Shown piece after piece: positions 2,781-19,133 of a stretch of DNA of 29,972 bases; the stretch's first letter is position 1; every line of letters begins with the position of its first letter. Under the pieces are notes generated by a model. It was given only the letters and a program-made list of their open reading frames with translations, did not search any database and was not told the origin of the DNA. The position numbers and the translations under genes were made by a program. Source of the stretch: a virus; IMG/VR virus record IMGVR_UViG_3300031964_000784. One strand, given 5' to 3'.

Positions 2781-5700
2781 ACAGCCAAAGAAGCGCGCCC
2801 GCAAAGCAAAGACGGTATCGGCGGCAAAGATTCAGATACCCGTTATCCGAATCGTCAATCCGTTCAACCCGCGTGAGTTCGTGCGCGAAGAGGTGGTATG
2901 GGGCGCAACCAAGACGCTGAACGACTACTTCCCCGAAGTGCCATCGGTGGTGTCGAACCAGAACGCTGTCGTTTCCATCAACGGCAAAATCGTTCCAAAA
3001 GAGCTGTTTTCTGTCACCTACCTGGACAAGACCGACAACTTGGTCGTTTGCCCGATACCGGCCGGCGGTGGGGGAGGTAGCGGCGGTGGCGGCGGTAGCG
3101 GCAAGATGATTCTTGAAATCGTCGCGATGATCGCGCTCGCTGTCGTTACGGCAGGCGCTGGTCTCGCCATTGCTGGCGCGATTGGTCTCAGCGGAACGGC
3201 GCTGACGGTTGGTGGCGCAATCATTCAAGCTGGCATTATGATGGCCGGCTCGATGCTGATTCACTCGCTTTGCGCTCAAAGTTCGCCCACCCAGACATCC
3301 ACGGCGTCGTCAAGTTACGGGATCGACGGCGCCAAGACGACATCGACCGAGGGTATGCCGGTGCCCGTATCGTACGGCACATTCCGCATGGCGGGCAACA
3401 TCGTTGATATGTACACCATCAATGACGGCAACACGCAATTGCTTTACATGCTGCTTGCCGCCGGCGAGGGCGTCGTTTCCAGTATTACCGACATCGAGAT
3501 CGATCAAAATCCGATCACCGACTACACGCAGATTCAGACCGACATCCGGCTTGGGCAGCCAAGCCAACCTGTACTGCCGTGGTTCAATCAAGTTATTGCG
3601 CCGTTCTCTGTGTCGCAAAGCCTGACGCCAACGCCGATTTACTACACAACGACGGCCAGCATTGACTCTTTCCGCATCGACCTTACGTGCCCAGGCGGAC
3701 TCTATCGTACCGACCAAAGCACCGGCGCCCTGGACATCTGGCCGGTTGGTGTTGTTATCCAGTATTGCCTGACCGGCACGAACGAATGGCAAAACATTCA
3801 GGTGACAAATCAAGTCATCGGCTGGCGCGCGGTCACGGCTATCGTCAGTAACTATCTGGCATCAGGGCTGTCCGATGTTGACGCCGATAATATCCAGATT
3901 ACGGCAGATGGCGTTGCGATGGCACTCAACACGACGACCAATCAATATCAAGTCGTGCAGCCAAACTACCAGTGGGTATTTCCCGCAGGCGCAGAAGATC
4001 CAAATGGCGTAACGTATGCTGATGCCGGTCAGCCTGTCACAGACCCGACACAGCTCGCCTACCTGAACGCGAACTACGCCTATGACACGGCCAACGCGCA
4101 GATTCCCCTGTACGGTTCGGCCCTCACGCAATATGGCGCCGGTCAAGTGGTTCTTCAGGCTGCACAACAGGCCGCCTTCCGCGCCTCGTATTACTCTGGC
4201 GCGATCCCGAACGGAATATACGACATTCGCGTGTCGCGGACGATTCTCAAATCGACCGACCCAACGGTCTCGGACGACACCTGGCTGACCGACGTCAACG
4301 AGATTCAAAACCAGGCAATAAACTACACCAACACGGCGCTGGTTGGGGTCTTTGCGGTTCTCGGCACACAAATCACCAGCGTTCCGAACGTCACCTTCCT
4401 ACACCACGGCATTCTGATCAACGTCTGGGGCGTGCCTGGCACATGGGCGACAGAAGAGCAATGGTATCCTGCCGCCAGCAGCAATCCGGCATGGATTCTA
4501 TGGGATATGCTGACCAATACGCGCTATGGCGCCTCAATACCGGAAGCGCAACTGGATCTGCCAGCATTCCAGAATTGGGCAAACTATTGCGTAGAGGAAG
4601 ACCTGAACTGGAATGGCCCGTTCGACACGGCGTCAAACATCTGGGATGCCTCGCAATTGGTATTGCGCGTCGGTCACGCGCAGCTCGTGTCGATCGGCAC
4701 GATTTACTCCATCGTTACCGAGGCCCCAAGTACGCCGGTAATGATGTTCTCAGTCGCCAACATGATCACGGACACCTACACGGAAACCTGGCTCGGTACG
4801 GCTGATCGCGCGACAGAAATCGACGTCACCTATTTTGATTCGACGGACTTCTACACGCAAAAGACGGTCAAAGTCTACGACCCAACCGCGCTCCAAGCCG
4901 GACGGCCTTCGAATCCGTCCGCGATCACGATGTATGGCGTAACGGACGTAGCGACGGCTTACAAAGAGGCGCAGTTCATGTTGAACATGAACCAGTACAT
5001 CCTCAAGACGGTGACATTCAGCGCCCCGATGGAGGCAGTCGCCTGTAACCTTGGCGATCTGGTTTATATCCAGCATGACATGCCGAACTACGCCCAGGCG
5101 GGGCGGTTTCCGGCCGGCAGCACGACTTCGGTCATTAATCTGGATCGACCAGTCACGTTGAATTACGGCATTCAGTACATTCTGCTCGTGAATCACGACA
5201 CGGCTGTCATGGCGACCGGCACCATCACCAATATCGCCCTCGACACGATATTCATCACCGGCTTTAGCGGCACGCAGACGGTATCGCGCTTTGTGGTTGG
5301 CTCCATCGACACGCGCGTATCGGGAACCTTCGAAATCGCACCTGGCGTCTTTGGGGTAACCGTAGACGACCCAACGGGGCTTGCAGTAGGCGATACCTAC
5401 ACACTCTACGAAACGGATTATGTAGAAACGGCAAACGTCGTCAACGCTACAACGCCGGACTCGCCAGCCGTAACGACCACGCTGACGCTCCAACACCCAT
5501 TGATGCAGGCTCCTGCGCTCTATGCAAATTGGATGTTCGGCGACGTCACCAAGGCGCAGCAGATTTTCCGCATCACGAAGATCGAGGGGTCGCAAGATTA
5601 CCGGCGCGACATTACGGCGCTCCAGTACAACCCCCTGGTCTATGACTTTTCGCGTTACAGCTCGTCCATCCCGCCAATGCTTGAGGCGACATCAGGCCCG

Positions 5701-8291: not shown

Positions 8292-8482
8292 TAAAGATTA
8301 CGCACACGGAAGACTACCGCAAGTTGCGGGCGAAAGAATACCCGCCATTGGTGGACTTTGCTGACGCAATGTATTGGCACACGCAGGGGGATGATTCCTC
8401 GTTGCTGGAGGCTTATATGGCTAAATGCGCAGAGGTCAAGAAAAAGTACCCCAAGTTGCCTCTGCCGCCAAAGAAAGATTAA
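8288..8482 (+). CDS. Small tail-associated phage protein
   Basis: 64 aa, ATGA-coupled; YRKLRAKEYPP..ADAMYW..VKKKYPK motif common in small phage tail genes. Confidence 0.65.
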   Translation: MIKITHTEDYRKLRAKEYPPLVDFADAMYWHTQGDDSSLLEAYMAKCAEVKKKYPKLPLPPKKD

Positions 8483-8494
8483 TTGCGGCCTTAT

Positions 8495-8524
8495 ACATAA
8501 GTCACCAATGACTTATGTTAGAAT
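8495..8524 (+). promoter_or_regulatory. Perfect operator-like palindrome with extended -10 promoter upstream of the tail fibre gene
   Basis: ACATAAGTCA-CCAA-TGACTTATGT (10-bp arms, 8495-8518); TGnTAGAAT at 8516-8524. Confidence 0.7.
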
Positions 8525-17495: not shown

Positions 17496-18269
17496 ATGGC
17501 ACGTAGTGATAAGTCAGACCGTAGCGGCAAACGTCAAGCGAAGCGCGCAGGAATACTCCCCGAACAGCAATTCTCAGATTACACAGTGCCGGCACGTCCG
17601 CTGCGCGCTGCGCCATTTGAACCCAAGACCGACAAGCAGCGCAAGTACGCGGCAGCAATTCGCCTACCGGGTAGCGTTGTGTTCGGGATGGGGCCGGCGG
17701 GTACGGGCAAGACCTATGTGGCGGCTACCCTGGCGGCAGACGCACTGATGGAAAAGAAGGTTGACAAGATTATCCTGACGCGGCCGGCAGTCGAGGCGGG
17801 CGGCGAGAACTTGGGCTTTCTGCCAGGCGACAAGGAGGAGAAGTTCGATGCCTACTTCGATCCGGTGCGCGACGTATTCGAGGAGCGCCTGGGCAAGTCA
17901 TTCGTGGACTATTTGATCAAAGAGGGGCGGATCAAGTGCGAGCCGTTCGCCTACATGCGCGGCAAGACCTTCAAACGCGCCTTTGTGATGCTTGACGAAG
18001 CGCAGAACGCGACACCGGAGCAGTTCAAGCTGTTCCTGACGCGGATCGGTGAGGACGCAACCGTGGTTGTCAACGGTGACGAATCGCAGGTGGACATCAA
18101 AGGGCAGTCTGGCTTTGTCGATGCGGCCAACCGGATCATGCACATATCCTCGGTCAAGGTCGTATTGTTTGAAAAGAAAGATATCGTGCGTAGTGGCTTC
18201 GTGCGGGAGATCGTGGAGGCGTACGAGCAGCCGGCGCCGAGCCGCATCAACCCTGTGCTTTTGCGATAA
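17496..18269 (+). CDS. phoH: PhoH-family ATPase
   Basis: GPAGTGKT, LTRPAVEAG.ENLGFLPGD, AYMRGKTF, DEAQN, LTRIGE, DIVRSG. Confidence 0.95.
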   Translation: MARSDKSDRSGKRQAKRAGILPEQQFSDYTVPARPLRAAPFEPKTDKQRKYAAAIRLPGSVVFGMGPAGTGKTYVAATLAADALMEKKVDKIILTRPAVEAGGENLGFLPGDKEEKFDAYFDPVRDVFEERLGKSFVDYLIKEGRIKCEPFAYMRGKTFKRAFVMLDEAQNATPEQFKLFLTRIGEDATVVVNGDESQVDIKGQSGFVDAANRIMHISSVKVVLFEKKDIVRSGFVREIVEAYEQPAPSRINPVLLR

Positions 18270-18283
18270 GAAACAAAGATGGA

Positions 18284-18413
18284 CAAGTGGGTGGGGCCGG
18301 CGCCTCATTCACTTGGGAATGCCACGCTTAACATAAAGTCTTATCTATAATAAAGAAGTACAGATTTAAAGAAATACAGAATATACGCGGAGAGAGGCGG
18401 TTCCCAAGTGAAT
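18284..18413 (+). promoter_or_regulatory. Structured intergenic region: alternative inverted repeats around an AT-rich tandem repeat
   Basis: 18284-97 pairs with 18302-15; 18307-19 is the exact reverse complement of 18401-13; 16-bp tandem repeat at 18351-82. Confidence 0.6.
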
Positions 18414-19133
18414 CAAGTGGAAGAGAAAGACACGCACGGCCCCTATTTTGGGTCGGAGCTAACCCGGAGTGAATGTGATGTGCTGGCGATAGCGAACATC
18501 GGCGTCAAGCTGCGGGATCGCGAGCAGGCGCTCATGAAGGATAAATGGTTCGACTACCGGCCCATGCACCCGACCCAGGCGACATACCTGTTTGCGCATC
18601 ATTTCAACAGGGCGTACGGCAACTTCATGAATGTCGGGTACGGCAAGGGCGGCGGCTTCATGGCGTCATTCAAGGGCAAAGACTTCATACAGGTGCGGGA
18701 GAAAACGTCGTTCTGGAGTCTTCGTCAAAAGGTCGACGAGCTTGGCGTGCGATACGACTTCTTTTGCCGCAAAGCGATGGATTGGCACCTTGAGCGCGGC
18801 TGGCGACGGCCGCCGCGCCCTTGTCATGTGGTCAACAACAACGACATGATCGTGTATGTCATGAACGCGTGGGCGGAAGAGTGCGCCAGTAAGATCCAGT
18901 TTGCCAAATCGTCGCGCTTTACCGCCGCGCAACACGTCGGCGGCGAAGATCAGCTTGCGTACGAGGATTTCATCGTCGAGCAGATCAAACGCAAACAACA
19001 TCCTAAATTCGCTCTGTACAGTGCGTTATATGTGCATGACGCAATTCGCATTGAGACAGCAATGCTGCACTTTTCTGAGGAGGTTATCTGCGAGGCCCGT
19101 GAATACAATAATTCACTTTCTCAAGAAAGATAA
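18408..19133 (+). CDS. Hypothetical protein heading the replication block
   Basis: 241 aa; GTG start after GAGAGG; aromatic/basic globular sequence; no motif recognised. Confidence 0.65.
   Translation: MNQVEEKDTHGPYFGSELTRSECDVLAIANIGVKLRDREQALMKDKWFDYRPMHPTQATYLFAHHFNRAYGNFMNVGYGKGGGFMASFKGKDFIQVREKTSFWSLRQKVDELGVRYDFFCRKAMDWHLERGWRRPPRPCHVVNNNDMIVYVMNAWAEECASKIQFAKSSRFTAAQHVGGEDQLAYEDFIVEQIKRKQHPKFALYSALYVHDAIRIETAMLHFSEEVICEAREYNNSLSQER

Follow-up and report, generated by a model that had tools for sequence, protein, structure and literature searches.

A conserved hairpin and mirrored CTTGGG boxes around a putative promoter ahead of the replication genes of a peat virus

The intergenic region considered here, positions 18284 to 18413 of a virus sequence from peat metagenomes, is situated between a phoH-like gene and the first gene of the replication block, which encodes a protein of the family PHROG 2500. 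The window, that is the whole stretch of DNA analysed, comprises 29,972 nucleotides (nt) and is a portion of the 35-kb IMG/VR virus record IMGVR_UViG_3300031964_000784, which is approximately 32% complete; coordinates count from its first letter, and all genes around the region are on the + strand. The original prediction for this region was a two-state RNA switch, in which one segment (arm B) pairs either with arm A upstream of it (state 1) or with arm C at the start codon of the PHROG 2500 gene (state 2), the latter burying the start. Comparison with about 60 related loci, in which the sequence following the phoH stop was examined up to and including the first 30 nt of the next gene, points to another reading, to which we give about an even chance. 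The stretch would consist of a terminator followed by an operator-bracketed promoter that acts on the level of the DNA and would constitute the regulatory cassette of the replication block. In the following, WIN designates the window's own locus, and L- and G-numbers designate related loci and genomes.

Hairpin, boxes and promoter-like elements

State 1 is a genuine, conserved hairpin of the + strand RNA. In the window, arm A, which begins as predicted at the 15th nt past the phoH stop, pairs with arm B in a stem of 14 base pairs (bp; seven G-C, four A-U and three G·U), the folding energy of which amounts to −20.7 to −22.3 kcal/mol on the + strand (z = −4.2; 0 of 200 shuffles match). The claim that the hairpin works only as + strand RNA holds as a marked preference, the + strand being far the stronger, but not as exclusivity, as the stretch on the − strand, at −13.1 to −14.1 kcal/mol, still folds. 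The same preference is seen among 26 loci, where the mean energy of the best hairpin is −16.5 kcal/mol for the + and −11.6 kcal/mol for the − strand (Wilcoxon p = 0.0002, a value that is indicative only as the loci are related). In most of the about 60 loci the region carries a hairpin at its 5' edge. When stem conservation was scored by a loop-anchored pair table, each of seven diverged relatives displayed an uninterrupted stem of 11–17 bp with one to four G·U pairs, and two to six pair types occurred per position; the covariation expected by the original prediction is thus found for this first helix.

With a G+C-rich perfect stem and a 4-nt loop directly after a gene, and with its + strand specificity, the hairpin of the window resembles Rho-independent terminators, and in L040, L042 and L051 its place is taken by a canonical terminator with a T-run. 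It differs from them in that the base of the stem overlaps the box of the next promoter and in that the window and its nearest relatives have no U-tract; a terminator scan gave no match at the hairpin, the tail of which, GGAATGCCACGC, is not a U-tract, and the T-run is absent in the window's closer relatives.

The second structure, the perfect 13-nt inverted repeat of state 2, is likewise present, and all letters and coordinates given for the two structures were right. The upstream arm, termed B' here, and arm C are 100% complementary across 13 nt and represent one of only three such inverted repeats in the 30-kb window (11-nt seed, arms not more than 150 nt apart). What the arms hold is the same sequence, a CTTGGG(G) box, placed on both sides of the putative promoter (18307–19 and 18401–13), an arrangement found likewise in about 30 loci. 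The window has one upstream box (18312–17) and two downstream copies, the first of which lies in an arm that spans the GTG start and the spacer behind the Shine-Dalgarno (SD) sequence; four of the 17 CAAGTG hexamers of the window fall inside 18284–18419. Chance as the origin of hairpin and inverted repeat was considered and rejected on the basis of the shuffles, the hexamer count and the inverted-repeat census.

Between the two arms, promoter-like elements follow each other. The −10-like element CATAAAGT is the window's counterpart of CTATAAGT, which is conserved in the family as judged from an alignment of 22 intergenic regions, and its TAAAGT (18334–39) sits 15 nt past the TTGGGA of the box. 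The composite CTTGGG-N13-17-ATAWAG occurs a single time in the 35-kb record. A second conserved element, TATAAT, aligns with TCTATAT/TATAAC in the relatives and may be an alternative −10 element; in a simple sigma-70 scan it was not paired with any −35 element. The AT-rich leader downstream consists of two tandem 16-mers, and relatives harbour at the corresponding position AAGTA/AAATA-type repeats and a conserved GTATTTnGGAAAACG immediately 5' of the SD sequence. They also keep GAGAGG(C/A) followed by the inverted box. From this motif conservation, the mRNA probably starts downstream of 18320, an outcome that had been named in advance as refuting the switch. That the box is a general promoter motif of the phage was rejected for the 35-kb record, which holds the one composite only; complete relatives hold two to three. 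The features are compiled in Table 1.

Table 1. Genes and sequence features at and around the intergenic region, in window coordinates
Feature	Position	Strand	Description
Metallophosphoesterase gene		+	Directly before phoH in gene order
phoH-like gene	17496–18269	+	Upstream transcription unit; stop TAA 18267–69; Pfam PhoH 2.1e-72, PHROG 170
State 1 hairpin	18284–18315	+	Arm A 18284–97 pairs with arm B 18302–15; loop CGGC; no U-tract
Upstream arm B'	18307–18319	no strand	Holds the promoter-proximal box CTTGGG (18312–17) at the putative −35 position
CATAAAGT	18332–18339	+	−10-like; counterpart of the conserved CTATAAGT
TATAAT	18346–18351	+	Second conserved element, TCTATAWT; possible alternative −10
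AT-rich leader	18352–18383	+	Tandem 16-mers AAAGAAGTACAGATTT / AAAGAAATACAGAATA, 12/16 identical
TTGGGA, 16 nt, TATATT	18380–18407	−	Promoter-like; mirrors the forward unit; 9/12 in consensus scan; possible antisense or convergent promoter
Shine-Dalgarno region	18389–18397	+	GGAGAGAGG
Downstream arm C	18401–18413	no strand	Inverted box CCCAAG (18403–08) overlaps the GTG start
Second, partial downstream box	18414–18419	no strand	CAAGTG; 9-nt tandem of the first downstream copy
PHROG 2500 gene	18408–19133	+	GTG start 18408–10; opens the replication block; match to PHROG 2500 at 2.2e-60
Hfq-like, DnaB-like helicase, primase and ligase genes		+	In this order after the PHROG 2500 gene

The cassette in related loci and at other places of the genome

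The box is kept as a sequence in approximately 30 non-redundant loci, the PHROG 2500 proteins of which are 38–62% identical to that of the window. Within the window's clade the order of elements is fixed. One to about ten tandem (A/G)CTTGGG(G) boxes are followed by a short G+C-rich spacer (GCCGCCA or ATGCCGAC), the conserved TTCTATAAGT and the second element TCTATAWT, an AT-rich stretch of 50–60 nt with AAGTA-type repeats, the SD sequence GAGAGG and, finally, one to three inverted boxes CCCAAG, which lie anywhere from −35 to +27 relative to the start codon and in differing reading frames. For about 15 loci the distance from the proximal box to CTATAAG is exactly 21 nt, and for one clade it is 23 nt; this is how a −35 element or an activator site is placed.

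The number of boxes is variable. While most other relatives have two upstream boxes 11–13 bp apart, the near-identical phages L069, L067, L066 and L065 possess two, three, five and about ten, respectively, at 10-bp spacing. These four loci (upstream of position 1477) differ solely in the count of 10-bp CTTGGG(TCGA/CTGA) units, which reads as a clear-cut case of slippage changing the number of repeats. The separation of the box pair ranges from 82 to 104 bp with clusters near 84–86 and 90–92 bp and without a clean 10.5-bp series, and in L017, L018 and L020 the boxes are kept though the inter-box spacers differ between the arms. Where another gene intervenes after phoH, the PHROG 2500 gene retains the hairpin, the boxes and the promoter in front of it; in the three loci L019, L055 and L062, where the intervening gene lies between phoH and the PHROG 2500 gene, the hairpin keeps to the downstream cassette and not to phoH. 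Forward and mirrored halves of the cassette show 55–75% similarity over the whole unit.

Pairing between the arms is less consistently maintained. In about half of the relatives the arms match by the 6-bp core only, and the seventh box position and the flanks are complementary in some loci only. The long-range arms beat shuffles at z < −2 in 11 of 30 loci and are no better in the other 19. Unlike the hairpin, the long-range duplex has no strand bias, with energies of −26.4 kcal/mol on the + and −25.8 kcal/mol on the − strand (p = 0.13). The second helix is retained mainly in the form of the invariant box, its arms being conserved as sequence and not merely as complementarity. For the 13-bp arms fine-scale covariation is absent because there are no close relatives: a nucleotide search of phage records matched phoH only and gave no closer relative, and scans of viral and metagenome contigs with single proteins for closer relatives gave nothing. 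A search of sequencing runs retrieved 24 peat metagenome DNA runs with all or part of the stretch and no RNA run; four of the DNA runs, compared over 18270–18420, contain the same phage with zero differences and therefore offer no population-level covariation.

The cassette is not confined to the PHROG 2500 gene. In complete relatives of approximately 110 kb the composite box-N14-YTATAAG is present at two to three places, the PHROG 2500 site and one or two others, and the extra copies share the AT-rich leader and GTATTTnGGAAAACG ahead of the downstream box. Some copies hold perfect palindromes (CTTGGGAnTCCCAAG) away from any start codon. Genome G001 has two such copies with the perfect palindrome CTTGGGA(C/G)TCCCAAG at the −35 position. 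One (G001:C1:19758–19860) displays the 15-bp palindrome CTTGGGACTCCCAAG with an identical repeat 84 bp downstream, whereby the start of the nearest long open reading frame (ORF) is about 300 nt away; the second, at 4600–4700, has CTTGGGAGTCCCAAG and a downstream CCCAAG. As the palindrome pair lies away from an ORF start, the bracket is independent of a start codon, and in terms of sequence it is a property of the repeated promoter cassette and not of the PHROG 2500 start codon. In G004 a perfect inverted repeat of 18 nt, CGGACCAGTTGGTAGTTG, specific to this site, brackets a cassette copy on the − strand (C1, about 73230–73380), and variant GTTGG-type boxes replace the common CTTGGG (73357). 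The palindrome TAAGTCA...TGACTTGACA and a promoter come next in G004, before the following gene.

DNA sites or RNA helices

On the reading of the cassette as a set of DNA sites, the hairpin would act as a terminator or 3'-end hairpin and so insulate the cassette from transcription arriving from upstream. The promoter would be composed of the CTTGGG(G) box, which holds the −35 position, and the −10-like CATAAAGT (in the family CTATAAGT), and would be followed by the AT-rich leader and the SD sequence, with the inverted copy of the box covering the start codon. The boxes would be sites for a candidate protein, be it a repressor or an activator, or could be part of the recognition by the RNA polymerase holoenzyme; as they lie approximately 90 bp apart around the promoter, repression might proceed via looping or as a roadblock. 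The main mRNA would begin near 18345–18360 and lack arm B, and any read-through RNA would adopt state 2 and be poorly translated, whether this is selected or not. The 13-bp complementarity would then exist because one site is present in both orientations, and the overlap between hairpin and box because the only upstream box of this phage abuts the hairpin. This reading is backed by the conservation of the box as sequence with variable copy number, its fixed spacing to CTATAAG, the tandem arrays at roughly helical-turn spacing, the recurrence of the cassette with palindromic sites and with brackets away from start codons, the retained boxes of L017, L018 and L020, the arms' lack of strand bias and limited pairing, and the joint occurrence of hairpin, boxes and promoter with the PHROG 2500 gene.

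Operator pairs which repress by DNA looping are positioned about 113 bp apart in the case of gal OE/OI, 92 bp apart in the case of lac O1/O3 and about 94 bp apart in the case of NagC. Common to these systems and the cassette are the same site on both sides of a promoter, here at 82–104 bp, an AT-rich centre, one site over the −35 element and, at the other copies of the cassette, palindromic sites. The cassette departs from them in that its upstream sites are tandem arrays of variable length without clear helical phasing and in that half-site-like boxes in opposite orientation take the place of two full palindromes.

Several observations weigh against the DNA reading. The complementarity of the arms extends beyond the box in the window (13 nt versus a core of 6–7 nt) and in L008, L011, L058, L060 and L071, as predicted by RNA pairing. 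Termination is not assured because the hairpin has no U-tract in the window's clade. As a sigma-70 promoter the forward pair TTGGGA-15-TAAAGT matches poorly, and the simple scan did not pick it up. The G004 copy with its own inverted repeat fits better with local pairing or inverted duplication than with a single shared operator. Finally, strong hairpins that sequester the ATG occur in the distant relatives Stenotrophomonas phage BUCTxx99 (L006:3076–3126, −32.3 kcal/mol, z = −10.5) and Xanthomonas phage JGB6 (L003:2480–2524, −20.5 kcal/mol, z = −7.0), in which the short sequence separating phoH from the PHROG 2500 homologue forms, over its whole length, a single compact hairpin with the ATG in its 3' arm and one compensatory C-G to U-A change between the two; these hairpins could reflect translational coupling or occlusion.

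The last point leads to the alternative that survives best, a promoter-dependent occlusion of the start on the RNA level, which we regard as a serious if rather unlikely explanation, and which is compatible with the DNA reading ranked above it. In phage T4 the genes e, soc, 49 and I-TevI have a hairpin sequestering the ribosome-binding site with a late promoter in its 5' strand (PMC3014915). Correspondingly, read-through RNA would hide the SD sequence and start, RNA from the internal promoter would be translated, and the downstream box would owe its conservation to the need for complementarity with the −35 element of the promoter itself. The folding of a hypothetical read-through transcript (18260–18445) agrees with this scenario, as state 2 is the fold of minimum free energy, at −47.7 kcal/mol and a pair probability of 0.975, with a mean paired probability of 0.87 from the SD sequence to start+5, while promoter-initiated RNA leaves the start weakly paired (−8.8 kcal/mol). 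The burial of the GTG start in state 2 that had been foreseen is therefore borne out by an arm C which spans 18408–10, provided that arms B and C share one RNA. The layout with a promoter-like element overlapping the 5' arm is exactly that of T4, with the 3' arm over the SD sequence and start so that only read-through RNA would fold, and phage context and timing logic are alike; upstream and downstream boxes pair in the minimum free energy fold of about 20 of 30 relatives, and the extended complementarity and the hairpins of BUCTxx99 and JGB6 equally speak for occlusion. On the other hand, the arms of the cassette lie about 80 nt apart and do not form a compact hairpin, their sequence is conserved and repeated, and their pairing is weak, with the 6-bp core only, in half of the relatives and not above shuffles in 19 of 30. 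The arms furthermore lack a + strand (G·U) bias, pairing does not need an array of up to ten tandem upstream boxes, brackets and self-palindromes are found at cassette copies without a nearby start codon, and the hairpin directly upstream suggests low read-through.

A replication origin is an unlikely alternative. Iteron origins with an autoregulated rep promoter are known from P1 oriR/incC, pSC101 and R6K, and T4 oriF/oriG combine an activator-box promoter with an unwinding element. In analogy, the boxes might be iterons or activator sites, 18352–83 the unwinding element, and transcription from the cassette might prime or activate replication. In line with these systems, the boxes of relatives (e.g. 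L033, L065–L067) recur in the same direction about once per helical turn over the promoter, followed by a 60-nt AT-rich core with tandem repeats, and the cassette is found immediately 5' of the PHROG 2500, Hfq-like, DnaB and primase genes. It also has several copies per genome, which fits multi-origin phages and sets it apart from the iteron and T4 origins, and in both G001 and G004 the cumulative GC skew reaches its minimum at a distance of 1–2 kb from one copy of the cassette. In the window, however, there is only a single upstream box and no skew inflection at the site, the skew of relatives is weak (about ±0.02–0.05 around most sites), and a DnaA-box-like element was not noticed by eye, no dedicated search having been made.

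The PHROG 2500 protein provides no recognisable initiator either. Its AlphaFold2 (AF2) model is all-helical and very confident (predicted local distance difference test, pLDDT, 95; predicted template modelling score, pTM, 0.90), and fold comparisons recognised neither an initiator nor a DNA-binding fold. The Pfam search gave no domain match, Foldseek against the PDB returned nothing at E ≤ 0.001, VIA-align wide reached a top Z of only 5.0 over a 72-residue helical stretch, and an Atlas search with the protein gave nothing usable. In a tree of the PHROG 2500 proteins the box types group by lineage, with an unresolved backbone; the tree is silent on whether PHROG 2500 is the protein that binds the box.

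An equally improbable variant combines both levels in a dual DNA/RNA device. Here, the box would serve as a phage-specific activator site in place of the −35 element, the promoter would also prime or activate replication via the AT-rich repeats, and the mirrored box at the start codon would silence translation of all transcripts begun elsewhere. If this were true, synthesis of the first replication protein would be strictly tied to the firing of the promoter or origin.

More doubtful still are convergent promoters, with the inverted box as the −35 element of a leftward TTGGGA-16-TATATT promoter (18407 to 18380), where an antisense RNA or the polymerase itself would interfere with the rightward promoter. 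Within the intergenic region the consensus scan picked out this site alone (9/12), a mirrored −10-like element at the same box spacing is present in L015, L021, L014, L054 and L071, and the similarity of the forward and mirrored halves also speaks for it. Against it, TAnnnT at the right spacing is absent from the mirrored units of most relatives, there is no leftward gene, an antisense RNA would miss the SD sequence and start, and the hairpin is weak on the − strand.

The weakest of the alternatives, and one to be considered only with great reservation, is the two-state leader originally predicted, in which copy number or lytic commitment would be governed by the equilibrium between A:B (ON) and B:C (OFF), and a ribosome, an antisense RNA or the Hfq-like protein would shift this equilibrium. 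In the window, the states are mutually exclusive because both use 18307–15; in a growing RNA state 1 appears first, and forcing the full state 1 in the read-through RNA costs 9.4 kcal/mol, by which state 2 is the more stable. As a small point, the base of the hairpin takes the CUUG of the first box in WIN, L011, L008 and L016, and a ribosome ending at the phoH stop would be expected to reach the foot of the hairpin. The leader also resembles those of R1 CopA/CopT, ColE1 RNA I/II and pT181 in its position ahead of the first replication gene, its helices that exclude each other and a possible promoter on the − strand; it differs from them in having neither a conserved antisense promoter nor terminator and in belonging to a repeated promoter cassette. 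Beyond the window the exclusivity is lost, as both structures coexist in most relatives with two boxes (L007, L008, L010, L011), the arms are sequence-conserved boxes of variable copy number, and the conserved promoter-like element between the arms probably starts the mRNA 3' of arm B. Rfam gave no match at E ≤ 1 within 18150–18550, and there is no sign of a trigger or of a connection between the element and the Hfq-like gene.

Gene context, further motifs and significance

The order phoH, PHROG 2500, small protein and helicase is common to Pseudomonas phage nickie, BUCTxx99, JGB6 and the PBSPCA1 fragment and is shared by dozens of uncultured viral contigs of approximately 110 kb; in the annotated relatives examined, the PHROG 2500 protein precedes the genes for the Hfq-like protein and the helicase. 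A cultured relative, Pseudomonas phage PBSPCA1, has this box and this −10 element as well.

Apart from the cassette, TGATAAGTCA and near variants recur in intergenic gaps ahead of several genes of the window (1740, 16004, 17434, 17507, 22140 and 22188), and a full palindrome, ACATAAGTCA-N4-TGACTTATGT, is located at 8495–8518. The ATAAGTC core of this motif is also contained in CTATAAGT of the cassette. TGATAAGTCA is a candidate for a phage-wide operator or a −10-type motif. In an intergenic stretch with + strand genes on either side (8412–8455), the − strand reads ACTTGGGG and then TTGACC-16-TATAAG, a good sigma-70-like pair that may be a leftward or antisense promoter.

With respect to method, the region is a cautionary case, as mirrored boxes for recognition by a protein or polymerase around a promoter would on their own yield perfect 'alternative helices', which puts RNA-switch calls from single sequences at risk. 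With respect to biology, the comparison defines a conserved cassette of hairpin, CTTGGG boxes, CTATAAG element, AT-rich leader and mirrored box, which stands at the head of the replication module, recurs about three times per genome and belongs to a widespread, mostly uncultured family of tailed phages of approximately 110 kb related to nickie and SSU5. The cassette gives a concrete starting point for locating the regulator and early promoters of this family and, perhaps, its origins.

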